Shown piece by piece: positions 316 to 14,903 of a stretch of 64,000 nt of DNA. Source of the DNA: Longimicrobiales bacterium. Lineage in GTDB: Bacteria > Gemmatimonadota > Gemmatimonadetes > Longimicrobiales > Gaopeijiaceae. A model generated the notes under the pieces. That model was not told the DNA's origin and ran no database searches. It worked only from the letters and a program-made list of their open reading frames with translations. Positions within the stretch are counted from its first letter, which is position 1; each line of letters starts with the position of its first letter. The stretch lies in NCBI GenBank assembly GCA_963664435.2, contig CAXXKM010000001.1, positions 1,088,001 to 1,152,000 of the forward strand, given 5' to 3'. The translations under genes were made by a program, and so were the position numbers.

Positions 316-496
316 CTAGATATCCGTTGTCCCATGTAGTCCAATGAGGTACATGAGTGCGTTCATAACACGTTATTGGACAACCGTTTCCGGTGGTACT
401 GTCTCGTTTCATCGTCCCTTGCCGTCCGTTGTGATCCCGTGTATTCTTCCCTGTAGAGTGATTTGGTATGTGATACACAACGGCAGGAAGGACCGC

Positions 497-1651
497 ATGA
501 CGAAGCGACCCAAGACGCTTACCGCCGCCTTCGTTCGGACGGTCAGCCGACCCGGAGTCTACGGCGACGGACGAGGAGGCCGCGGGCTGAGCCTCCGGGT
601 GTACCGGACGGCCAACGGTCGGATCACCAAAACGTGGCGTCAGCGCGTCCGGATCGACGGGCGACTCACCTCGATCGGTCTCGGTCCGTATCCCGAGGTC
701 ACGCTCGCCGACGCCCGGGAAAAAGCGCTGGACAACAGCCGGAGGGTTCGCCGGGGACAGGATCCGCGCGGGCGCGGCGTGCCGACCTTCGCCGAGGCGG
801 CCCGGCGGACCATCGAGCTTCACCGCGACTCGTGGAAGGCCGGGAGCCCCTTGCCTCAGCAGTGGGAATCCACGTTCCGGCTCCACGCCGCCCCGCTCCT
901 CGACAAGCCGGTGGACCGGATCACGAGCGCGGACGTGCTCGGGTGCCTTGGCCCGATCTGGAACTCGATGCCCACGGCCGCGCGGAAGGCCAAGCACCGG
1001 ATCGCCGCCGTGTTCCGGTGGAGCATCGGCCGCAATTACCGCCGGGACAACCCGGTCGACCGGGCGGTTGCGGCGTTGCCGAAGCCGAACGGGAACCCAG
1101 GAAGCCATCACCGCGCCCTGCCGCACGGGGAGATCGCTGCGGCGCTTCGTTCCATCCGCCGGGTGGGGGACGGGAGTCTGGCTGCGTTGTGCGCCGAACT
1201 GATTGTGCTCACGGCAGTCCGTCCCGGCGAGGCGCGTGGCGCGCGGTGGGACGAGATCGACATGGACGCGGCAAGGTGGACGATTCCGGTGGCGAGGATG
1301 AAGGCGGGACGCGAGTTCACGGTCCCGCTCAGCACGGGCGTGCTGGAGGTGCTGATTCAGGCGCGCAAGCTGTCGGACAAGTCGCCGCTGGTGTTCCCGT
1401 CGCGGACCGGCCGGACGCTTGCGCCGAAGACGGTGTCGCGGGTGCTCCAGATGGCCGGGGTGGACTCGACGCTGCACGGATTCCGGTCGAGCGCCCGGTC
1501 GTGGATGGCCGAGACCGGCGTCCCGGCGGAGGTCGCGGAAGCCTGCCTCGCCCACGTTCCCAAGAGCCGGGTCGTTCAGGCGTATCAGCGCTCCGACCTG
1601 CTGGAGAGACGCGCCGAAGTCATGCAGGCTTGGAGCGACTACCTCGGGTAG
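497..1651 (+). CDS. P4-like tyrosine integrase with N-terminal arm-binding domain
   Basis: GVYGDGRGGRGLSLRV arm domain; VRPGEARGARWDEID, HGFRSSARSW, LAH...AYQRSDL catalytic motifs; AGGAAGGA before ATG 497. Confidence 0.95.
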   Translation: MTKRPKTLTAAFVRTVSRPGVYGDGRGGRGLSLRVYRTANGRITKTWRQRVRIDGRLTSIGLGPYPEVTLADAREKALDNSRRVRRGQDPRGRGVPTFAEAARRTIELHRDSWKAGSPLPQQWESTFRLHAAPLLDKPVDRITSADVLGCLGPIWNSMPTAARKAKHRIAAVFRWSIGRNYRRDNPVDRAVAALPKPNGNPGSHHRALPHGEIAAALRSIRRVGDGSLAALCAELIVLTAVRPGEARGARWDEIDMDAARWTIPVARMKAGREFTVPLSTGVLEVLIQARKLSDKSPLVFPSRTGRTLAPKTVSRVLQMAGVDSTLHGFRSSARSWMAETGVPAEVAEACLAHVPKSRVVQAYQRSDLLERRAEVMQAWSDYLG

Positions 1652-1952
1652 CCACTTGCCTCCCCCAACGCCGATCAGCACCACCCTTCCACCTCCGTAG
1701 CGCGGTTCGGCGGTCGCCCGCGACCGCGTTGCCGGCATCCACGGCGTCAGCCGGGTCGAACCGGGCCTCGTCGGACCGGTTGTCACACCTTCGGACGATC
1801 ACTCCGCGGTTCGCCAGGGGGGGATCTTGCCACGCCGCTGGCAGCGACCGCAAACGGGTCGTAGACGGCGTTGGAACCCCATGGAAGGCTGTGGAAAGGT
1901 AGGGAATTTCCGACCGTTGACGCCGTCCCGAATGGTCCACCAGCGTTCAGGC

Positions 1953-2180
1953 ATGGAGACGCTGGAAGAGCTATTCAGATCGCGGGTTAGCGCGTTCCTC
2001 GGGCGTTCGAGCCTGAGCCCGACGGCGTTCGGCAAGAAGGCGCTGGGCGACCCGAACCTGATGCGCCAGATCGGTCGGGGACGCTCGCCGACGCTGAGGA
2101 CGGCGGACCGGATTCTCTCGTTCATCGCCGAGCAGGACGGAGCATCGGGCGGTGGACGCGATCCGCCTCGACGCCCGTGA
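1953..2180 (+). CDS. Small Cro-like HTH regulator
   Basis: SPTAFGKKALGDPNLMRQIGRGRSPTLRTADRI resembles phage/island small HTH proteins. Confidence 0.65.
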   Translation: METLEELFRSRVSAFLGRSSLSPTAFGKKALGDPNLMRQIGRGRSPTLRTADRILSFIAEQDGASGGGRDPPRRP

Positions 2181-2228
2181 GACCGGAGACCGACCAGCAA
2201 GCAGCGAACAAGGAGGAGGAGAAGGACG

Positions 2229-2525
2229 ATGACCGAGAACACGATGGAACGGAGGATGAACCCGCCGATCCGCTTCCTGCGGCTGCCCGAGGTGATGGCG
2301 CGCACCGGCCTGTCGCGGAGCACGATCTACGTGCGGCTGGCAGAGGGGCGCTTCCCCCGGCCGGTCGCCCTGGGCGGGCGGGCCGTGGGGTGGATCGAGG
2401 CCGAGGTGGACGAATGGGTCCGCGAGCGCATCGCCGAGAGCCGGTTCGACGGCGCGCGGGCCGGTGAGCGCGGCGAGGCCGCGCGGGGGATTCGCCGGGC
2501 GGCAGAGGCCGGCCCGGTTCGATGA
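2229..2525 (+). CDS. alpA: AlpA-family regulator / recombination directionality factor
   Basis: RFLRLPEVMARTGLSRSTIY...GRFPRPVALGGRAVGWIEAEVDEW. Confidence 0.9.
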   Translation: MTENTMERRMNPPIRFLRLPEVMARTGLSRSTIYVRLAEGRFPRPVALGGRAVGWIEAEVDEWVRERIAESRFDGARAGERGEAARGIRRAAEAGPVR

Positions 2526-2583
2526 GCCGGCGCGCTTCGCGGCGGTCGGGGAACAGCCCGTCGGACTCGTCTAAGGCCGGTGA

Positions 2584-2617
2584 GCCAGCACACGCGATGT
2601 TGAACATCGCGGCTGGC
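2584..2617. other. Candidate oriT hairpin
   Basis: GCCAGC-aca-CGCGATGTT-g-AACATCGCG-GCTGGC inverted repeat just upstream of mobC. Confidence 0.5.
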
Positions 2618-2719
2618 GAGGGGTTGCTGCGCCCCCTTCGAACCCCCGGCCTGCCGCGTCCCTGGCGGAGCAGCGGACGCGCGGGGGCGAGGCCCCCGAA
2701 ACCCGTCTCCGGTGCGACC

Positions 2720-3058
2720 GTGGCTGAGCATCGCACCGTGATGGTCGCCGCCCGGGTCACGCCCGCGGAACACGCCGCCTGGCGGGAGAAGGCGGCTGCG
2801 GCGGGCGTGTCGCCGTCCGCGCTGCTGCGCGAGGCGATGGCGCGGACCCAGACCTGGACCGCATCGGCACGGGCCGTCGAGCGCAAGCGCACCCGCCAGA
2901 TCGCGCGCATCGGAAACAACCTGAACCAGCTGGCGCGCTGGGCGAACACACACGCCTCGACGGCCGAGGCGGTCTCGGTGATCGCCCATTTGGTGTCGTT
3001 CGAGCGGTCGCTGCTCGCCGTGGCACGCATCGGCGAGGAGGCCCGCGATGCTCGTTAA
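2720..3058 (+). CDS. mobC: MobC/MbeC relaxosome accessory protein
   Basis: RHH-like N-terminus and RQIARIGNNLNQLARWAN motif; overlaps the relaxase start. Confidence 0.9.
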   Translation: MAEHRTVMVAARVTPAEHAAWREKAAAAGVSPSALLREAMARTQTWTASARAVERKRTRQIARIGNNLNQLARWANTHASTAEAVSVIAHLVSFERSLLAVARIGEEARDAR

Positions 3059-4571
3059 GTTCCTCTCCCATGGGAAGGGCTCGGCCCGGGCGGCGGTCGA
3101 GTATCTCGTCGGCGAGCGGGACGCGGCGGGACACGAGCGCGAAGGCGTCGAAGTCTTGCGCGGGAACCCGGAGATGGTGGCCGCCGTGGCCAACTCGCTC
3201 GACTTCGAGCGCAAGTACACGTCGGCCGTGATCGCATGGGCGCCGGAGGACCGGCCGACCGGCGAGCAGATCGGAGCCGTCCTCGACGAGTTCGAGAAGA
3301 CCGCCTGGGCGGGACTGGAGCCGGACCGCTACGCGTGGACGGCCGTCCTGCACCGCGAGCGCGGCGGTGGCGTCCACGCGCACATCCTCGCCGCGCAGTG
3401 CGACCTCCAGACCGGGCGGAGCCTGAACATCGCGCCTCCCGGCTGGCAGCAGACCTTCGCCCCGCTTCGCGACGCCTTCAACCACGAGCACGGCTGGAGC
3501 CGCCCGGACGACCCGGCGCGAGCCAGGGCGCAGCGGCCGGGCCACGTGGCCTACATCGAGGCGTCGAAGCTGCGGGCCGGACTCGAACACGAGGCGGACC
3601 CCCGCACGCTGATCCGCGACTATCTGGTGCAGCGCGTCGAGCACGGCGCGGTCAAGGGCCGCGCCGACGTGGTCTCCGCGCTGGAGGACGTGGGGCTTGA
3701 GGTGCCCCGCCAAGGCAAGGACTACATCACCGCCCGCGATCCGGAGAGCGGCAAGCGGTGGCGGCTGAAGGGAGAACTGTATGAGCGAGACTTCGAGCCC
3801 GAACGACTTGACCTCGCGGCTGAGGAGCAGGCTGGAGGCCGACCGGAAGGAGATCGAGGAGACGGCCACGCGCGAGCTCAGGCGGCTTGGCGAGAGCTTA
3901 GGCGCCGTCAGAAGCGACGCGCTGCGTTCCATCGAGGCCGATACGGTCGAGGCGACCGGGCGGATGCGCGAGTTGCTGATGAAGGCCTGGCTCCGGCCGC
4001 TGGTGGTCGGCATGAGCCTCTTCCTTGGTATCTGCGGCGGCAGCTGGGCGACGATGCACTGGTTGTCGAGGAGCATCGACTCCCGGATCGAGACCTTGGC
4101 GGAGGTCAAGCTCAGGATCGTGCGGGCGCGCGACACCTTGGCGGTGATGCACGAGACGACGTGGGGCATCGAGTTGCAGGAAATCAACGGGGATCGGTAC
4201 GTGTTGCTGCCCGCCGACACTCCGGGCCGTCCGGCATTCACCATGGACGGACGGCCCTACATGAAGCTCTCGAGAGAGTGAGGAGGGAGTTGCATGAACG
4301 ACTTGGAACGGCAGTTGACAACCGCCTTGGAGCGGTTGTCCGAGCAATACGAAACGGAACAGCGGCGGCACTGCGGACAGATCGAAACGTTGCGCGAGCA
4401 GGTCGAAGCCTTGCAGCGGCAAGTCGAGCGGCTGAGCGGGCGGGTGACGGAGTTGACCGGATACTCCGGGACCTACGGCGCAGGGCCAGGGCGCGGGTGG
4501 AGATGACGCGCCGACTGGTGGAAAAGATCAGGCGTCCCGGGCCGGATCGGGACTCGGGGCCGAGCCGGTGA
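3048..4571 (+). CDS. Relaxase, ColE1 MbeA-like (MOBP)
   Basis: MLVKFLSHGKG..AVEYL, VLRGNPE, KYTSAV, VLHRERGGGVHAHIL, DLQTGRSL. Confidence 0.9.
   Translation: MLVKFLSHGKGSARAAVEYLVGERDAAGHEREGVEVLRGNPEMVAAVANSLDFERKYTSAVIAWAPEDRPTGEQIGAVLDEFEKTAWAGLEPDRYAWTAVLHRERGGGVHAHILAAQCDLQTGRSLNIAPPGWQQTFAPLRDAFNHEHGWSRPDDPARARAQRPGHVAYIEASKLRAGLEHEADPRTLIRDYLVQRVEHGAVKGRADVVSALEDVGLEVPRQGKDYITARDPESGKRWRLKGELYERDFEPERLDLAAEEQAGGRPEGDRGDGHARAQAAWRELRRRQKRRAAFHRGRYGRGDRADARVADEGLAPAAGGRHEPLPWYLRRQLGDDALVVEEHRLPDRDLGGGQAQDRAGARHLGGDARDDVGHRVAGNQRGSVRVAARRHSGPSGIHHGRTALHEALERVRRELHERLGTAVDNRLGAVVRAIRNGTAAALRTDRNVARAGRSLAAASRAAERAGDGVDRILRDLRRRARARVEMTRRLVEKIRRPGPDRDSGPSR
3781..4281 (+). CDS. MbeB-like mobilization protein nested in the relaxase gene
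   Basis: Alternate-frame ORF with coiled N-terminus and a TM segment, in the position of ColE1 mbeB. Confidence 0.65.
   Translation: MSETSSPNDLTSRLRSRLEADRKEIEETATRELRRLGESLGAVRSDALRSIEADTVEATGRMRELLMKAWLRPLVVGMSLFLGICGGSWATMHWLSRSIDSRIETLAEVKLRIVRARDTLAVMHETTWGIELQEINGDRYVLLPADTPGRPAFTMDGRPYMKLSRE
4294..4506 (+). CDS. MbeD-like protein nested in the relaxase gene
   Basis: MNDLERQLTTALERLSEQY resembles the MbeD N-terminus; RBS GAGGAGGGAG. Confidence 0.75.
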   Translation: MNDLERQLTTALERLSEQYETEQRRHCGQIETLREQVEALQRQVERLSGRVTELTGYSGTYGAGPGRGWR

Positions 4572-7501: not shown

Positions 7502-10500
7502 TTAGCTGGGTGGAATGGCTGCCGGGGTGCCCTTCGCCCACGTGCCCCCGTTGTCCACCCTCGTATCGACGCGAAGCTGGCTCGCCTTCGTCAGGTTGGA
7601 CTGGCTGACTGTGTAGAGAAGGGCTGGAGCGTCATCGTCTACCCATCCGTCGGTTGCTGCGTTGGCAGGAAGGTTGAGGTCAAAGTCACTCGAGTTCCAC
7701 TTGCCCCAGTCGGATCCAGAGTCGGTTTCTGGGTCGGTGTCCCTCGATACGGTAGGCGCCGTGATGGTGCCAGCGACGACCCATTCCCATCTGTTCTCCG
7801 TGGTGGAGCCGGTCTCGACCTGGACATATAGCGCGATTCGGTGCTCCAACTGCGGGCTGCCCGCTCCAGACCAGGAAGCTGTGATCACGTCTGTCACATC
7901 GGCGCCTCCTACGCCGCCCCCGATGTCGCGGTCCACCGTGACGCCCGAGGCACCCGAGGCCACGCCGGCAAGCTCTGCAGCGGCACTGACGGCGGCCGCG
8001 GCGTCGCGCGCGGTTCCATCTGCATCTACCACTGCGTTGCCGATCTTGACGTTGATCTCCCGGTAGTCATCATCGTCGTCTTCAGGAATGATGTACGTGG
8101 TAATCCGATCGTGCTTTACGGTGGTACCGGCGCTCGCCGTCCCGCGGCCGGCGGTACCGGCGGTGTTCGCACTAGTCCTCGTCCCGCGGATGGCGGGGGC
8201 CACGGTGGTGACGCCGCCCGAGGGCGCAGCAAAGGTGCTGCCGGTCGCGGTTGTCAAGGCGACGGTCGCATCATCCGCGGCCGTGTACGGGTTCGTGTTG
8301 CCGGCGCCGTCGTCGCCGGGTGCATTTCTGGTCTCGTAGTGCCACGTCACCACGATCGTGTCCGTAGGTTCTCCCTGGACGAGGCTGAATCCACGGGTGG
8401 CCGCGTCCGGTGTAATGGCGCTGGCCGGAACGGCCTCGCCTTCATGGGCGGCCCTTATCGTCACCCGCCTGACGCTCGCGATTCGGGGCTGGACGCTGTT
8501 TCCGGTGAACGTGCCGAACTGCAAGGTCTGGCCGGGGATGACGGCGATCGTGCCGCCGGGTCTGGTTGCCGGCGGATCGAACCAGGTATACCTCTCCGCG
8601 TCCCTCAGATTCAGGAAGTTCGGATGGGTGGGATCATAGTCGTCCCGAGGCGCGGCGCTGAGGGTGACGGTGCCGCTCAGGGTGGGCACCTTGAGGCTGA
8701 ACGTCCCGGTCTCCGTGGTTGTCACTTTAGTGCTACCCGACGTGGGAGCAGTCCAGGACGCCGTGACCGTAACCTCGGCGTGGGGCATGCCGCCTCCCGG
8801 ACCGGTCACCAGGCCAACAATCTCGGTGGCCGCGTAGCCTGTGAAGTCGATGCTCTGGCTCCCCCCGGCGATGGCCGAGGCCTGGCGGCTGGCGGGTATG
8901 AAGTGATAGCCGGTCTTACTCGGAGTCACGTCAACGAGTGGGTCATTGTTCGGCTGGATTTCGACGACCGCCGTGTAGGTGCCATCATCATCCGTCGTGA
9001 CCTTCCCTGATCCCTGCCCTGATCCCGCGTTGAGCGGGGCCTTGCCGTCCACCTTGATCTCCACGCCCTTGATCGGTGCGTTGGTACCGGCTTCCGTGAC
9101 CGTGCCGGTGATCGCGACGGTGTTGTTCGCGCCACTGAGGGAGATGTCGTGCCTCTCCACCGTGTTGGCGGCGAACGCGGGGGGGTGGGTTCCGGAGCCG
9201 GGGTTGTTAGTGGAATCCGCCTTGGCCGCCGGATATCCCGCCCTCTCCGTATTCACGAAGAGCTGTCCCCGCACGGCGCTGATGCCGGACACGATGTAGC
9301 GGCCCAGGTCGTCGGTCGTGGCCGTCATGCCGTTCACGGTCACGGTCACGTTCTCAAGGCCGACGCCGAGCGCGTTCCGCACGAAGCCGTAAAGGGTGGA
9401 GGTGGACGGTGTGACGTCGATGTGGACGTTCGTACCGTGGCCTCCCTGCCCAAGCGGGCTGAGCGCGTCTTCCGCCTTCATGGCGCCGACCATGCCCCGC
9501 CATCCGTCGGGAAGGCCGAGCTCGTAGGCGCCGGCCGCCATGGTTTCGAAGTCGTGATCGGTGCGCTCGTCGATGTCTGTCGTCGGGTCGTTGCTCGACG
9601 CAGTGGTGAAGGACCGTCCGACACCCGCGAGATTCTTGCCTTCGGCCGGTGTCAGGCTGACCTCGACCCCCGATTGACGCTTATCCCTGGCGTCGGTCGT
9701 ACTGAATCCGGCGCCCGACTTCCTGACTCCGTTCTTCGACACGTTCGCGGTCACATCGTGCGTGGTGACGACGGCGAACGAACCGCACTTGCCGAAGTCC
9801 TGGCCGGTGGGCTCGGTCTCCGTCAGCGGACAGAGCGTCACCGTGTGCCCCCAGCCGCCCATCGCGCCGAACGCACCGCCCATCACGCCGTTCTCGGCCA
9901 TGTTGCGGTAGGTGTCAAGCCCGTGGAGGTCAAGCAGCATGTAGCCGTCCATGGCGGTCGCATGAACGACAATGTCCAGGTCCGCCGGCAGGTGGGCGAA
10001 GGTGTATGCGCCCCTGCTGCCGCTCGTGTTCGCCCTGGAGTCCCAATCATCGCTCGAGATCGGACTGGTGAACCTGCCGTCGTTCCCGCTCGCCTGCCGG
10101 ACCTCGAGATCGACCAGCCCGGCTGCCCTGACGTCGCCACCCAGGACGCTGCCCGTGTAGCCGCGGACCTGGTCGCGCTCGTGGTGCACGTAGACCTTCA
10201 GCGTCTGGGTCGTGTAGGTCACCACGATCGGAGTGGCGTCCATGTTGCCAGCCAACTTGAGTCCGTTGTGCTCGTACATGCCGCCGGACGCCTCGTACAT
10301 CTCGCCGCCGTCCAGCTCGTCGTCCTGGTCCTCGGCGGCCGCAAAGGTGAAGACTGCGGGCAGGGCGTCGGGGGCCACGACGGTCGTGAACGCCGCGTTG
10401 CCGTCGTCGTCCAGCATCGTCGGCGCACCTGGGACCGCGTCTGCGCCGGACATGACGCTGATCTCCCAGCCAGCGAGCGCTTCGCCGCCACCGTAGTCGG

Positions 10501-12388
10501 TCATGACCGTGGCGCCGCTGACGTTCACGTCAACGTTCAGGTTGACGATGTCGGCGTCGTTGAGAACCGCAGGCGGATCCGCGCCCGCCGCCGGATGCAC
10601 AAACGACTGTGGATCCCACGTCACGGCCTGCATCTCGGCCGTCGGATCCACGAAGTAGTCGTCCGCAGCAACCATCATGTGGACCGTGTTGTCGCTGGTG
10701 CCGGCACGCGCAACCTTGATCGACGCATAGACGCCGGCCTCGCTGGCCTTGGTCTCCCCGCTGCCGACCATGGCGTTGTTCGCCCCGTAGAACGTCACGC
10801 TGGCGCCGGGAATCGGATCGCCGCGATACTCGCCGCCCTTCAGCGTGACCGCGACGTTGATCGTCGTGTGTGTGATGTCGAACGGAACGGCCTGCATCTT
10901 TTGCTCACCGACGTCGAGGTCGAAGGCGTAACCCACCCCCGGTCCGCCGTACGCGACATCGTTTGCCGCGAGCGCGGCTGCAACCGTGGCGTCGATCGGC
11001 ACGACCAGCTGGTAGGAGCCGGCACGCAGACCCGGGAACATGAACGAGCCATCCGGCCCGGTCGCGCTCAGCCGCTGGTCATTGACGCCCGGGCCCACCA
11101 GCGCCACCGGAACACCAGGTGCCGGCAACGGGTGCTCGCCCGCGTCCATCATGTCGTTCTTGTCCAGTTCGTCGAGGAACAGCATCCCCGAGACGCTCGC
11201 CGTGGTGGCGTGCGCACCCTCGAAGTTCACGATCACCGACTCGTCGTCGCCGACCGTCACGCTCGAGCTCATCCCATCGAACACGTAGGCATCGCCCATG
11301 ACCGCGATCGTGACCGTGTAGTCGCCCGCTGCCAGGCCCGCGAAGGCGTACTGGCCGCTGACGTCGGTCATCGTGCTCGCGTCGGCCGCGCCTGATAGCG
11401 TGACCGCGATGTCTCCGAGTCCCATGCCCTCGACGCTCACCCGGCCGCTGATGCCCGAGGTGCGGAGCAGGACGCCCGTGAACGACACCGTGCCGGTCTC
11501 GTCGAGATCCACGCTCACGTCCTGCGACGTGGCCGCAAACTCGTAATCGCGCGGGTCGAAGTCCGCGATCTCGACCCTGTAGTCACCGGGGCGAAGTTCC
11601 TCGAACCGGAACATGCCATCGCCGTCCGTCATCATCGTGTAGCTCTCGTCGGACGGACCGCCGGTCAGCGTAACCGTAATGCCGGCAAGCCCCTCGCCTT
11701 CGATGATCACCTGACCCTCGACCGCGGAGGTGCGGATGAAGTGGCCCGTGAAGTCGGCCTGGCCGACATCGCCCACGTCAACCTCGATCTCGACGCTCAC
11801 CGTCTCGAAGGAGATGTCCTCGGGATAGTCCGAGATCGTGACCGTGTAGGTGCCCGCGCGGAGTCCGGTGAAGGCGAAGCCGCCGCTCATGTCGGTCTCC
11901 ATGGTCTCGCCCATGGCGTGCTCGCCGCCGAGGGTGACCGTCACGCCAGCCAGCGTCTCGGGCTGACCGTCGCCGCCGCTCATCATGGCGTCTGCCGCAA
12001 CCACGTTGCCGACCACCGCGGAGGAGCGGACGTACTCGCCGGCGAAGTTGAGTTGGACGTTCTGACCATCGGTCGCGATGGTCGCGGACTGCGTCACCTG
12101 GGCGAACGTCGCATCCTCGGGGAAGCCGCTGATGGTGACCGTGTAGGTCCCGGCTTCCACGCCCGAGAAGGCGAAGCTGCCACCCGACCCCGTCGTCGTG
12201 GTCGCACCCGACGACAAGGTGGCGGTGATGCCGCTGGCGGCCGTGCCTTCAATCGTCACCGTCCCCGAGATGGTTCCCACGGGAGTGGGCGGCGGGGGCG
12301 GCTCCACAGGCGGTGGAGTGCCCTCGTCGCAGGCGGTGAAGGCCAAGGCCATCAGCGTAGCTGTGGCGAAGAGTCTGAGTCGATTCAT
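7502..12388 (-). CDS. Giant surface lipoprotein with tandem carboxypeptidase-regulatory-like/prealbumin-fold repeats
   Basis: 1628 aa; lipobox FTAC, Pro linker, repeated G(T/D)Y(T/R)V(T/E)I and ISGxV units; RBS AGGAG. Confidence 0.85.
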   Translation of the reverse strand: MNRLRLFATATLMALAFTACDEGTPPPVEPPPPPTPVGTISGTVTIEGTAASGITATLSSGATTTTGSGGSFAFSGVEAGTYTVTISGFPEDATFAQVTQSATIATDGQNVQLNFAGEYVRSSAVVGNVVAADAMMSGGDGQPETLAGVTVTLGGEHAMGETMETDMSGGFAFTGLRAGTYTVTISDYPEDISFETVSVEIEVDVGDVGQADFTGHFIRTSAVEGQVIIEGEGLAGITVTLTGGPSDESYTMMTDGDGMFRFEELRPGDYRVEIADFDPRDYEFAATSQDVSVDLDETGTVSFTGVLLRTSGISGRVSVEGMGLGDIAVTLSGAADASTMTDVSGQYAFAGLAAGDYTVTIAVMGDAYVFDGMSSSVTVGDDESVIVNFEGAHATTASVSGMLFLDELDKNDMMDAGEHPLPAPGVPVALVGPGVNDQRLSATGPDGSFMFPGLRAGSYQLVVPIDATVAAALAANDVAYGGPGVGYAFDLDVGEQKMQAVPFDITHTTINVAVTLKGGEYRGDPIPGASVTFYGANNAMVGSGETKASEAGVYASIKVARAGTSDNTVHMMVAADDYFVDPTAEMQAVTWDPQSFVHPAAGADPPAVLNDADIVNLNVDVNVSGATVMTDYGGGEALAGWEISVMSGADAVPGAPTMLDDDGNAAFTTVVAPDALPAVFTFAAAEDQDDELDGGEMYEASGGMYEHNGLKLAGNMDATPIVVTYTTQTLKVYVHHERDQVRGYTGSVLGGDVRAAGLVDLEVRQASGNDGRFTSPISSDDWDSRANTSGSRGAYTFAHLPADLDIVVHATAMDGYMLLDLHGLDTYRNMAENGVMGGAFGAMGGWGHTVTLCPLTETEPTGQDFGKCGSFAVVTTHDVTANVSKNGVRKSGAGFSTTDARDKRQSGVEVSLTPAEGKNLAGVGRSFTTASSNDPTTDIDERTDHDFETMAAGAYELGLPDGWRGMVGAMKAEDALSPLGQGGHGTNVHIDVTPSTSTLYGFVRNALGVGLENVTVTVNGMTATTDDLGRYIVSGISAVRGQLFVNTERAGYPAAKADSTNNPGSGTHPPAFAANTVERHDISLSGANNTVAITGTVTEAGTNAPIKGVEIKVDGKAPLNAGSGQGSGKVTTDDDGTYTAVVEIQPNNDPLVDVTPSKTGYHFIPASRQASAIAGGSQSIDFTGYAATEIVGLVTGPGGGMPHAEVTVTASWTAPTSGSTKVTTTETGTFSLKVPTLSGTVTLSAAPRDDYDPTHPNFLNLRDAERYTWFDPPATRPGGTIAVIPGQTLQFGTFTGNSVQPRIASVRRVTIRAAHEGEAVPASAITPDAATRGFSLVQGEPTDTIVVTWHYETRNAPGDDGAGNTNPYTAADDATVALTTATGSTFAAPSGGVTTVAPAIRGTRTSANTAGTAGRGTASAGTTVKHDRITTYIIPEDDDDDYREINVKIGNAVVDADGTARDAAAAVSAAAELAGVASGASGVTVDRDIGGGVGGADVTDVITASWSGAGSPQLEHRIALYVQVETGSTTENRWEWVVAGTITAPTVSRDTDPETDSGSDWGKWNSSDFDLNLPANAATDGWVDDDAPALLYTVSQSNLTKASQLRVDTRVDNGGTWAKGTPAAIPPS

Positions 12389-12764
12389 GGAATCTCCTGA
12401 GTGATGGGAATGAATACCGGCCTGAAGCGGCTGGAGAGAGTCGCGTGCCCTCGGATAAGCAAAGGTGGTGCCAGTTTGGAAACCTTCATATTTCTCAAGC
12501 AGTTACGGACTATCCTTCTGCTCCACGGCACAGCCTCATCGGTGAAAATCCTCGGATAATCGAGGATCAACGCTGTTTTCTGAATATGACAAAAGCGATG
12601 GTTATACATCGGTATTGACCTACACTGTCCTCCCGCTTGTCGCATGCCGTGATCAGAAACCCGGCTCTCAAGATACCGGCTCACCTTCCGTCGTCATAGT
12701 GACAATAACGGGGATCGCAAAGGACACAAACGATGACGGCTACCCGGGCCGGACCCCTACTATA

Positions 12765-12791
12765 TGATAGGCGCCTATGATTTGATAGGCG
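12765..12791. promoter_or_regulatory. Candidate operator
   Basis: Perfect palindrome ATAGGCGCCTAT (12767-12778) and TGATAGGCG direct repeat (12765, 12783) in an AT-richer divergent intergenic region. Confidence 0.45.
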
Positions 12792-12898
12792 TGACAAAAT
12801 GGTGACTCTGCCCTACTGGTATTGTCGGGCTCACTAGTGGGCAAGGAAGTCGCCGCGATGGTCGCTCGCGCATCCTGCTCCCAGGGACGGCGTGGCGG

Positions 12899-13762
12899 AT
12901 GGAATCGGAACGAACTGTCTACTCGCTGTATTGCACGGACGACGATCTTGGAGACCGACTCGAGCGGGTGCTTCACGGTGTCGCCGTCCAGCGAGTGAGG
13001 TCGAGAAAGGCACTCGTGGCGGCGTCCGTGAGCACTCGGGCGGCGGTCGTCGGCATCACCGCGTGCTCCGATACCGAGATCGCATGGCTGCGGTCGGGCT
13101 TCGGGCTTCTGGGTCCGCCTTGCGTCGTGGTGGCGCGCCTCTCGGTGGGCTGCGTGCGACGATTGCAAGCGCTCCGTTCCGGCAGGGTGCGGGTCATCTG
13201 GGCGGACGAAGTGGAAAGCCGCCTCGTCGAGGTCCTGGAGGGCTTCGCGGGAACGCACCGGGGTCCGATGTGGCGGCTCGGCGTGAAGCTGCTCTCCGAT
13301 CACTCCTTCAGACCTTCACTCCGGGAGACCATCAGCCGGGTCTGCGGCCTGCACGACGATGTCGGGGACGCCCCGTTCATCCCGGCAAACTCGGTCGGCC
13401 GACTGGCGCGCCGCGTCGACCTGGCCCCTCCTACGCTGAGGCAATACTGGAGGGAGGACATGCCCCTCCGGTGCAGCCTGAAGGAATTCCTGGGCTGGGC
13501 GGTCATCCTCTGGGCCGTGCGCGCTCGCTCGCGGGACGGCTGGAACGCCATCGCCGACCGGGCGGGACTGCAGCGCCGCACCCTGCAGAGGAACTTCAAC
13601 CGGCTGGCTGGCTGTACGCTCGCGGCGGCGGCCGAGGATCCGGAGCAGGTCGTTCGGCGATTCAACGAATGGGTCGATTCGGTGTGGGAGCCCCACGCCG
13701 GCAACGGGCCCGGGAAATCCCATCCGGTTCCCGCGCGGGCAGCCGTCGAGCGGATATCGTGA
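12899..13762 (+). CDS. Putative transcription regulator (degenerate receiver-like + AraC-like HTH)
   Basis: Two HTH-like segments: SVGRLARRVDLAPPTLRQYW and WNAIADRAGLQRRTLQRNFNRLAG. Confidence 0.55.
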   Translation: MESERTVYSLYCTDDDLGDRLERVLHGVAVQRVRSRKALVAASVSTRAAVVGITACSDTEIAWLRSGFGLLGPPCVVVARLSVGCVRRLQALRSGRVRVIWADEVESRLVEVLEGFAGTHRGPMWRLGVKLLSDHSFRPSLRETISRVCGLHDDVGDAPFIPANSVGRLARRVDLAPPTLRQYWREDMPLRCSLKEFLGWAVILWAVRARSRDGWNAIADRAGLQRRTLQRNFNRLAGCTLAAAAEDPEQVVRRFNEWVDSVWEPHAGNGPGKSHPVPARAAVERIS

Positions 13763-14805
13763 CCGTGGCCGGATCGACTTACCGGCGTTACGTCGGCTGG
13801 CGCTGCAGGCTCTATCCGAGTCCCTCACAGGACGCGGCGCTGCACCGATGCAGGAACGGCCTGCGCGAGCTCTCCAATGAACTGCTCGTCGCCTCCCAAC
13901 TCAGGTACGGGGAATCCGGACGGCGGCTCTCCCTGACCGAGATGCGCGCCTTCGCGCGGGACTGGAAGCGGCAGCCGGAGCACAGGGGGTTCCCCGCCAG
14001 CGCCACCTACCGCGTCGCCGACGATCTCGACCGCGCCTTCCGCACCTGGTTCAGCAAGCCCGGCAGACGTGGGCGAAGCGGGTTCCCCCAGCTGAAGGCC
14101 ATCGGGGGAGAGCCCGGCATCTACTTCAGCAACCAGGGCATCCGCATCGAGGGCAGCCGGGTGTGGCTGCCCAAGTACGGCTCGGTGCGCTGGAAGGGCG
14201 GGAGGCTGCCCCCCGGGAGACTCGCGGGACCGTCCGGACGCAAGACCCTCGGTCTGCTCTCCGGACGAGTCTGGCTGGACGCGGGAAACCGGTGGATGCT
14301 CTCCTGCCTGTTCGAGTGCGAGCCGCTCACCCCTTCCAGGGCGAGAACGGACAAGGCCGCGGTCCGACAACACGGCCGCGAAATCATGGTGTCGGTCGAC
14401 GGGGAATCCGTCCACGTGATCCGCGAGAGCAGGGCGCTCCGCAACGCCAGACGCCGCCTGGCAAGGCTCGAGCGGCGGCTGGAGCGATGCGAATTCAAGT
14501 CCGAAGGCCGCAAGCGCACCCTGGCTCTCATGCGCAACCAGGCGCGCAAGGTCCGGAACCACCAGGCGGATCTGCAGCACAAGGCCACGACCGGCGTCGT
14601 GCATGAAGCCCGCGAGATCGAAGTCGAAGGCGCGAGCTCGGAACTGCTGCGCCAACTCGAATACAAGGCGGAGTGGCACGGCCGCCGACTGAAGGTACGG
14701 CGAGGCCCGCCGGAACCGGGGACCGGCAATCCCCGACGCGCGCGGAGACCGGGGAGCCGGTCGCTGAAACGCGAATCGCGGACGCGAAGGTCGAAAGCCC
14801 TGTAG
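13759..14805 (+). CDS. TnpB-derived protein, probably nuclease-dead
   Basis: WRCRLYPSPSQ, DLDRAFRTWF, GFPQLK, VWLPKYGSVR, LQHKATT, LRQLEYKAEWHG; RuvC-I Asp, Zn finger and RuvC-III not evident. Confidence 0.85.
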   Translation: MTVAGSTYRRYVGWRCRLYPSPSQDAALHRCRNGLRELSNELLVASQLRYGESGRRLSLTEMRAFARDWKRQPEHRGFPASATYRVADDLDRAFRTWFSKPGRRGRSGFPQLKAIGGEPGIYFSNQGIRIEGSRVWLPKYGSVRWKGGRLPPGRLAGPSGRKTLGLLSGRVWLDAGNRWMLSCLFECEPLTPSRARTDKAAVRQHGREIMVSVDGESVHVIRESRALRNARRRLARLERRLERCEFKSEGRKRTLALMRNQARKVRNHQADLQHKATTGVVHEAREIEVEGASSELLRQLEYKAEWHGRRLKVRRGPPEPGTGNPRRARRPGSRSLKRESRTRRSKAL

Positions 14806-14830
14806 CCGTCTGCGAAGGCCGGAACGAATC
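14715..14830 (+). ncRNA. Putative omegaRNA scaffold overlapping the tnpB 3' end; boundaries approximate
   Basis: ACGCGCGCGGAGA...GTCGCTGAAACGCGAA resembles tnpB 3' regions; hairpin TCGCGGACG/CGTCTGCGA (14776-14815) with a GAAA loop. Confidence 0.45.
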
Positions 14831-14903
14831 AGGGGGGCCAGGCGATAGCCGACGCGAGGCCCGGGCGGGAACGAAACCACAGAGCTCGGTGCTACACGTC
14901 CGG

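Follow-up and report, generated by a model that had tools for sequence, protein, structure and literature searches.

A nuclease-dead TnpB with a fixed guide as a candidate RNA-guided repressor of paralogous surface-protein genes in Longimicrobiales

We analysed a 64,000-nt stretch of a Longimicrobiales genome (contig CAXXKM010000001.1, positions 1,088,001 to 1,152,000; hereafter the window) that carries a gene for a nuclease-dead TnpB, preceded by a regulator gene and a divergent gene for a giant surface protein, and overlapped at its 3' end by a predicted omega-RNA whose guide matches the leaders of related surface-protein genes elsewhere in the genome. There is good support for an independent domestication of this TnpB for RNA-guided regulation: the gene is under purifying selection, its RNA and the target of that RNA are conserved, and a TnpB with an intact catalytic triad is its sister in a phylogenetic tree. 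We consider it likely that the protein resembles the nuclease-dead, TnpB-like repressors (TldRs) and silences a resident surface operon so that the copy in its own cassette prevails, within a network of cross-targeting cassettes. At the level of sequence, this reading draws on a dead active site, purifying selection, a predicted RNA fold, a match between guide and site, cassette copies free of the site, and sister subtypes aimed at start codons.

The open reading frames (ORFs) of the regulator (12899–13762, 287 aa) and the TnpB-like protein (13759–14805, 348 aa) are joined by a GTGA overlap. NCBIfam TnpB models match the latter below their cut-offs (E 6e-20), and ISDra2 TnpB (8h1j) is the top PDB match of its predicted fold (E 3e-21). 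The AlphaFold model has a predicted local distance difference test (pLDDT) score of 82, falling below 50 at residues 317–348, a tail encoded by the stretch in which the omega-RNA overlaps the gene end. We aligned the RuvC region with ISDra2 and 23 nearby full-length TnpBs. In the window's subtype, which we call subtype A, the RuvC-I Asp position is Arg (or Ser), with R/Q aligned there in the window's protein, the RuvC-II Glu is mostly retained (E290 in 21/25 loci), ~19 aa of the lid after this Glu are deleted, and both the zinc finger and RuvC-III are gone. The catalytic triad thus reads R/E/-, establishing a degenerate RuvC in a TnpB homologue; the D-E-D triad and TNB zinc finger of active IS200/IS605 TnpBs are absent. 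No Y1 TnpA (PF01797) was found in the bacterium's own 96%-complete genome (control positive in 6/14). A preliminary description of the locus, made from the sequence alone, had already read the overlap of the TnpB start with the regulator stop, the RuvC-I loss, the shortened segment after the RuvC-II Glu, the missing zinc finger and RuvC-III, the intact 348-aa frame and the lack of a nearby tnpA, and all of these were borne out by ORF calls, alignment and the genome search. It had placed the system at 12899..14830; the ORFs stand, but the extent does not, since the guide reaches 14834 and the surface gene lies at 7502–12388. It had also missed both the omega-RNA at the 3' end of the gene, with its fixed guide, and the target of that guide in the 5' untranslated region (UTR) of a resident surface paralogue.

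A homologue search returned 66 proteins, most of 346–348 aa and 75–88% identical, and this length is kept across dozens of homologues. The 20 close loci are labelled as Longimicrobiales/Gemmatimonadetes metagenome-assembled genomes, including Ca. Palauibacter, five being labelled Gammaproteobacteria. The dead TnpB is present in 16/19 genomes of the genus, the omega-RNA in the same 16/19; at wider sampling, the protein was present in 3/121 genomes of the family and its clade in 13/301 genomes of the class. Loci were sampled in two ways that overlap as sets and are related, such that counts given here are not independent. All 25 full-length subtype-A TnpBs are free of internal stops and have the regulator upstream, and the median pairwise ratio of nonsynonymous to synonymous divergence (dN/dS) is 0.29 for TnpB (codons 1–312, 300 pairs, 25 loci) and 0.42 for the regulator (17 near-full-length loci). 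Two checks proposed in the preliminary description, selection and conservation among homologues, therefore came out in favour of function: TnpB is under purifying selection rather than in neutral decay, and the same gene pair and RuvC loss recur. In two loci (L014 and L007), the regulator–TnpB pair has an A-class surface gene (classes are described below) downstream and convergent, which is a rearranged cassette. Among viral contigs, no clade member occurred in the best 80 of 242 matches, and none was found in three phage records; among metagenomes, two clade members occurred in the best 80 of 411 matches. Sequencing runs with the locus comprised one RNA-library run (share 0.05), labelled sponge metagenome, and five others. 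The host is likely to be a sponge symbiont.

Synonymous divergence (dS) falls from 0.41 to 0.06 across the last 36 TnpB codons, the stretch shared with the predicted omega-RNA, and a covariance model of the RNA matches positions 14689–14838. In 35 aligned RNA copies, 99.6% of the 700 cells of a 20-pair structure are paired, with 12 cells changed on both sides versus 1.7 in shuffles; a sliding alignment gives 22–35% pairing. The pseudoknot is paired in 35/35 copies, GGCC/GGCC having become GGCA/TGCC in four and containing G-U in five, although the double changes are inherited within one group and count as few events. The single-sequence fold is no more stable than shuffles (z -0.22), and Rfam holds no family for the RNA. 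Whatever the subtype, the scaffold ends in G(C/T)CGGAA, and the next 8–10 nt are subtype-specific. In subtype A, guide positions 1–8 read CGAATCAG in 26/26 loci, positions 9–12 agree in 18–24 of the 26, and the sequence beyond is random. Guides assumed to start after TCA or TCAA, the classical end of the insertion sequence (IS), gave no meaningful genomic match at offsets 0–9. In four loci (L018, L020, L021 and L154), a partial second scaffold start lies directly 3' of the guide.

By their leaders, the surface-protein paralogues can be divided into one resident class and three cassette classes (A, B and D). The 13-mer GAACGAATCAGGG, comprising the scaffold end and the guide, occurs four times in 4.5 Mb: at two RNA loci and in two resident 5' UTRs, where it is antisense and 22 nt before the ATG. 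When 3,061 gene-start windows were ranked without assuming a target-adjacent motif (TAM), these two leaders gave the best non-self guide matches, at 13 nt, ahead of matches of 12 and 11 nt. The 13-mer is present in 16/19 genomes of the genus, whereas its reversed control is present in none, and in the 30 loci that were read, 12 of 13 matches outside RNAs lie 22–23 nt before a surface-gene ATG. Within the genus, TGAA followed by the 8-nt core was found in 14/14 resident leaders versus 0/35 others, including 0/23 A-class leaders. The leader rule that defines the resident class overlaps the guide site by one base; 13 of the 14 resident genes were also recovered by a protein search independent of the leader pattern. 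The guide site is the most conserved UTR stretch of the 14 resident leaders, with 13/14 columns invariant as against 40/78 elsewhere in the UTR. There is no such leader site in G005 and G132, two complete genomes in which neither the TnpB nor the RNA was found. The matches that first ranked best, to a terminator-like hairpin (C2:120884/120931) and to the interior of an ORF (C3:1188125), were put down to chance.

Because three guide classes have TGAA before their best site, we infer that TGAA is the TAM of the system. Guide and site also change together. In one genome (G135), guide position 2 is changed from C to A, and its resident gene carries the same change. In a genome of another genus (G252), a C-to-A change at guide position 2 is mirrored in the targets, with a mismatch at position 1, AGACTCAAG being found at guide positions 2–10 and in three of its surface genes. 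A third genome (G113) has a position-10 change in both guide and site.

Sister subtypes appear to be aimed at the same gene family. The subtype-C TnpB is 52% identical, has no regulator in the loci examined, and sits directly behind a B-class operon. Its guide CCGACTCAA is matched by ATGAA followed by CCGACTCAA at the start codons of genes in the resident class and class A, the site being intact in 8/14 and 11/23 of these, respectively; its own B-class gene differs. The best match among the 3,061 gene starts was another surface-gene start (12 nt), and the TAM orientation is the favourable one, toward the promoter. A search of a second genus with the site sequence of the first found it in 2/53 genomes. 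Subtype F, which is basal (~400 aa, 39% identical), keeps the zinc finger with a triad of A-E-A or A-E-D, and adjoins a surface gene amid duplicated RNAs, with no regulator in the loci examined. One subtype-F locus seems identical in two families (L218/L247 in G194 versus L136 in G129), reflecting either recent transfer or binning contamination. The omega-RNA element occurs six times in the window's genome, twice as a tandem orphan pair upstream of a B-class surface gene. Such tandem or orphan RNAs, whose guides differ, lie upstream of B-class surface genes at G000:C3:1146537-1146926, L135, L144 and L147; the copy at L135 arose by duplication of the TnpB 3' end together with its RNA. In four genomes, an orphan guide TCGCTT(T/G) is matched over a 6-nt seed by D-class starts, which read ATGAA followed by TCGCTTC. 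In the window's genome, this orphan guide (E2) matches the start of a gene for a SusC-like, 1,069-aa TonB-dependent receptor (TGAA plus 9 nt; G000:C1:893433, minus strand), a possible second target.

We built a quick, midpoint-rooted tree of 53 rows, none of them a TldR. Subtypes A, C and F each fall on one side of a branch in it (support 99–100), as do the three together (98). The sister of the dead clade is an intact D-E-D TnpB (P0304; SH-aLRT 100), which favours an origin separate from the described TldR clades; 22 of 23 outgroup rows are D-E-D. Decay appears to have run from an active protein to a point-mutated one with the zinc finger, and then to a truncated one. The surface-gene link is probably older than the regulator link, the regulator being a later addition to a dead-TnpB core. 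The preliminary description had proposed an independent domestication paired with an AraC-like factor. The domestication stands, and the regulator link holds in subtype A (25/25); the pairing is not what defines the system, however, since subtypes C and F are regulator-free in the loci examined and are linked to a surface gene instead.

The cassette surface gene encodes a protein with a lipobox, eight matches to PF13620 and a weak match to an S-layer glycoprotein (E 9e-5). It is divergent from the regulator and upstream of it in 13/20 loci, three others being cut by contig ends, and the usual next gene encodes a 1,400-aa fibronectin-III protein. In the window, an element with an integrase, an AlpA-type excisionase and a relaxase (344–4571) splits the surface gene from this partner, which sits upstream of the window. 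Members of the family occur in 19/19 genomes of the genus, with five close paralogues in the window's genome. The complete genomes G005 and G132, where neither the dead TnpB nor the RNA was found, have 20 and 7 paralogues of the surface gene, respectively, and may vary their surface by another route. Genes of the family usually have a sigma-54-type motif ahead of them, which is present in 22/23 A-class leaders, and a sigma-70 scan returned 0 sites. The motif resembles the sigma-54 -24/-12 consensus, and its promoter function is putative.

Near-identical large inverted repeats carry surface operons (G000:C3:1130k-1146k versus C3:1778k-1794k, and C2 ~5k-13k versus 55k-63k). The C3 copy lacks the promoter and first 51 codons and is preceded by an integrase-like ORF, and the C2 copies have the promoter and N-terminus in common, their downstream parts being different. 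These repeats reflect either inversion-based variation or an assembly artefact. Codon 3 is TGA instead of CGA in 5/14 resident and 2/23 A-class starts, in genes that are otherwise intact, at 1,500–1,780 aa (G000:C2:13002, C2:54970, L055, L058, L080, L102, L013 and L019). The C of codon 3 falls at position 2 of the subtype-C protospacer, on the strand that would be displaced; candidate explanations are escape mutation, R-loop deamination, a CpG hotspot and read-through.

Receiver domains match the N-terminus of the regulator (VIA Z 11–13, root-mean-square deviation 2.7–3.0 over ~114 residues; best 13.2, with a deviation of 2.8), and there is no obvious phospho-acceptor Asp of the kind expected after beta-3, none being present in or directly after predicted strand 46–53 as read from the sequence and model. 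The model contains two helix-turn-helix-like helix pairs. The AraC-like label of the preliminary description found weak agreement in sequence: HTH_18 matches with 16.3 bits, short of its cut-off of 33.6, none of 40 distant relatives exceeds that cut-off, and three have weak AraC-type matches. Atlas neighbours score 0.91–0.93, and two of the clusters carry HTH_18. There was no PDB sequence match and no Foldseek match at E<=0.001. With a receiver fold plus helix-turn-helix and no match to a sigma family, the regulator is not the adjacent extracytoplasmic function (ECF) sigma factor of dCas12f-sigma-E systems. Stand-alone paralogues, 38% identical, exist in the same genome. The regulator changes about twice as fast as TnpB (dN 0.23 versus 0.12), and its N-terminal domain is unmatched in 6/25 loci with an intact TnpB. 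The sequence of the palindromic repeats ahead of the gene tracks the helix-turn-helix class of the regulator in 12 cassettes, a correspondence confounded by linked inheritance; these repeats are a candidate operator for autoregulation. Sigma-54 promoters need AAA+ activators. The regulator has no AAA+ domain, suggesting that its role is control of the operon of the repressor or modulation of the divergent promoter, and it is likely to act in this way rather than by going with TnpB to the target.

Coordinates of features in the window and of guide targets elsewhere in the genome
Feature	Position	Strand	Basis or remark
Cassette surface gene, encoding a predicted lipoprotein of 1,628 aa whose beta-sandwich repeats are carboxypeptidase-regulatory/SdrD-B-like	7502..12388	-	ORF, Pfam
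Leader of cassette surface gene, without guide target	12389..12446	-	best match 9/14 nt
Sigma-54-type -24/-12 promoter motif of surface gene (putative), TGGCAC-N5-TTGC	12459..12473	-	sequence
Candidate operator: repeated palindromic motif, CCTAT-N6-ATAGG-like, abutting -35-like GTGACA	12760..12796	+	intergenic alignment
Regulator: N-terminal receiver-fold domain (~5-120) and C-terminal double helix-turn-helix, AraC-like	12899..13762	+	structure, weak HTH_18
Nuclease-dead, C-terminally truncated TnpB (subtype A), 348 aa	13759..14805	+	ORF, TnpB models, fold, alignment, dN/dS
Predicted omega-RNA scaffold, ~130 nt, overlapping last 36 codons	14695..14824	+	dS drop, pairing, covariance model
Pseudoknot arms of omega-RNA	14704-14707 and 14817-14820	+	
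Predicted guide CGAATCAGGG	14825..14834	+	positions 1-8 invariant in 26/26 loci
Subtype-A guide targets, outside window	G000:C2:12976; C2:54996	-; +	5' UTR of resident surface-gene pair, TTGAA before site

In the mechanism that we propose, the cassette would make the nuclease-dead TnpB together with an overlapping RNA that has a fixed 8–10-nt guide, and the resulting complex would bind the TGAA-flanked site in the leader of the resident surface gene. RNA polymerase would be blocked ~50–65 nt past the sigma-54-type start, repressing the resident operon, and the cassette's own surface copy, which has no site, would escape and be expressed. A target downstream of a sigma-54-type promoter fits repression rather than dCas12f-sigma-like activation. 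The regulator would act on the cassette's intergenic promoters, probably its own, timing production of the repressor and guide. The displayed surface protein would consequently be replaced or switched, as fliC-linked TldRs do with flagellin.

Several points weigh against repression by this route. Its main weakness is the orientation of the subtype-A site: the protospacer lies on the antisense strand and its TAM points away from the promoter, and tested TldRs with sites in a 5' UTR are reported to have repressed efficiently only with the TAM toward the promoter (10.1101/2023.11.30.569447). According to the same paper, native oppF-TldR sites occur on either strand (10.1101/2023.11.30.569447). 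RNA binding and repression are themselves predictions from sequence and computation, and the RNA-library contigs of relatives that span the regulator, TnpB and RNA region come without ends, strand or level. The TAM and guide start rest on three guide classes, and GAA is common to the scaffold end and the site. Two of the five RNA types have no convincing target: no TGAA site was found for guide E1, and the 26 matches of subtype-F guides in 15/19 genomes include none at a surface gene and none that is consistent. No matching site was found in two draft genomes that have the guide (G248 and G374), nor was a resident surface gene found in G126 or G130. Six of the 26 subtype-A guides have changed position 9 without a change in the target, leaving 8-nt matches and weakening the covariation in G113, where position 10 is involved. 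Finally, the genomes are related, making counts less than independent, and conservation of the resident site could have a cause other than the guide.

Different explanations would account for some of these observations. If the regulator were an effector that the dead TnpB recruits to the guide site, analogous to dCas12f-sigma, it might activate or remodel transcription at that site, such as transcription antisense to the resident gene; this would fit the overlapping stop and start, the 25/25 linkage in subtype A, and the odd site orientation, which is seen only in the regulator-linked subtype. We regard such recruitment as unlikely, given that subtypes C and F are regulator-free in the loci examined, stand-alone regulator paralogues (38% identity) occur in the same genome, the regulator evolves faster (dN 0.23 vs 0.12) with an N-terminal domain unmatched in 6/25, the promoter of the cassette itself contains a candidate operator, and the regulator is not a sigma factor. 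The orientation problem would also be explained if the guide targeted mRNA, pairing as an antisense RNA with the resident leader at ~10 nt upstream of the ribosome-binding site, where it could block translation or trigger decay. The 13-nt complementarity, including the scaffold GAA, and an (uncontrolled) duplex energy of -24.2 kcal/mol agree with this. However, the guides of subtype C and the orphan RNAs are sense to mRNA and unable to pair with it, yet their sites have the same TGAA flank, pointing to one DNA-targeting rule, and we give mRNA targeting little credence.

The match could instead be historical, if CGAATCAG were the former right end of the transposon, or flanking sequence left over from an ancestral insertion into a surface-gene leader, and the protein and RNA were kept for another job. 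IS-derived guides come from the insertion flank, the sequence turns variable right after CGAATCAG, and TCAG and TCAA resemble IS200/IS605 right-end tetranucleotides. This is improbable in view of the shared scaffold ends whose next 8–10 nt differ by subtype and match different sites and strands of one gene family, the 8 nt that are unchanged in 26 loci despite synonymous divergence of ~0.4, and the seed covariation in G135. Functionless decay of a transposon remnant would explain the lost catalytic site and a few broken or duplicated copies (L022 and L024), but it is largely refuted by the dN/dS of 0.29 and the stop-free frames of all 25 loci; dozens of homologues also keep the length of 346–348 aa, and we consider decay extremely improbable. 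Repression of the resident operon is the explanation that we favour. A broader scheme, which we advance tentatively and think doubtful, is a circuit for switching the surface coat, in which at least three dead-TnpB subtypes and orphan guide arrays would cross-silence giant surface operons; the window's subtype would add a self-activating regulator, giving a bistable ON-self/OFF-rival switch by which a sponge symbiont would vary its antigens or phage receptors. In its boldest form, the R-loop would promote recurrent CGA-to-TGA changes at codon 3 of targeted genes, resulting in heritable knockout.

If repression by the dead TnpB is correct, RNA-guided silencing helps to decide which surface coat a probable sponge symbiont displays, and surface variation in uncultured sponge symbionts would have a possible mechanism. 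TnpB would once more have been domesticated independently as a repressor, this time in a phylum for which we found no reported case, and again for the choice among paralogous surface proteins, suggesting a recurring niche for TldRs. The intermediates are preserved, from an intact triad through a point-mutated form with the zinc finger to a truncated one. With named guides and predicted TAM and targets, the system is directly testable in E. coli, and with ~315 folded residues, a 130-nt scaffold and an 8–10-nt guide it is a very compact CRISPR interference-like candidate.

A literature search found no description of this dead-TnpB clade, which supplementary data and subscription papers may list, and no nuclease-dead TnpB paired with AraC-type or sigma54 transcription. 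One supplementary file of PMC10691335 and five of PMC10705468 contain no Gemmatimonad, AraC or Carboxypep entry. A close parallel is fliC_P-TldR of enterobacterial prophages, which likewise combines a dead TnpB, no tnpA and a linked surface-gene copy of its own with a fixed guide against the host paralogue and self-escape by TAM or seed mutation (10.1101/2023.11.30.569447; PMC13418256). Its cargo is flagellin, whereas that of the system described here is a giant lipoprotein and fibronectin-III operon with a sigma-54-type promoter, in a Gemmatimonadota host, with no clade member among the best 80 viral-contig matches or in three phage records, an 8–10-nt guide and an antisense leader site. A regulator gene also travels with csrA-TldR of Clostridia, which has several loci per genome; cross-targeting of paralogous surface genes, at sites inside the ORF, is predicted among four loci (PMC13418256). 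That partner is the RNA-binding CsrA, whereas the partner here is a DNA-binding protein with a receiver fold and a double helix-turn-helix, and the system comprises three subtypes that differ in guide, along with omega-RNAs that stand as orphans or in tandem. The oppF-associated Efa1TldR, with a 9-nt guide and a TTTAA TAM, shares a T-T-x-A-A-type TAM, a replaced first catalytic Asp, a truncated C-terminus, a site downstream of the start, and tuning of a paralogue repertoire (10.64898/2026.09.22.753285); it differs in cargo and phylum, and here the lid has been lost altogether, and RNA and ORF overlap. In the dCas12f-sigma-E activators, a dead TnpB-family protein similarly lies beside a transcription protein, and there are omega-RNA arrays (PMC10691335; see also PMC13472631). 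By contrast, the neighbour here is no sigma factor, no folded helix-turn-helix takes the place of the zinc finger, the dead TnpB is closest in structure to ISDra2 TnpB, not to Cas12f, and its site lies downstream of the promoter. With ISDra2 itself, it shares the REC/WED/RuvC fold, an omega-RNA overlapping the ORF end and a pseudoknot before the guide, but it lacks the D-E-D triad, TNB and TnpA, and its guide is fixed. Since its neighbours are regulator, surface-lipoprotein and Fn3 genes rather than fliC, oppF or csrA, the locus belongs neither to these TldR clades by gene linkage nor to the dCas12f-sigma systems. It nevertheless has the features by which TldRs are recognised: a degenerate RuvC, no tnpA found, a stable non-transposon link under purifying selection and, in silico, an adjacent structured scaffold with a conserved guide matching a paralogue site flanked by the putative TAM, together with self-escape.

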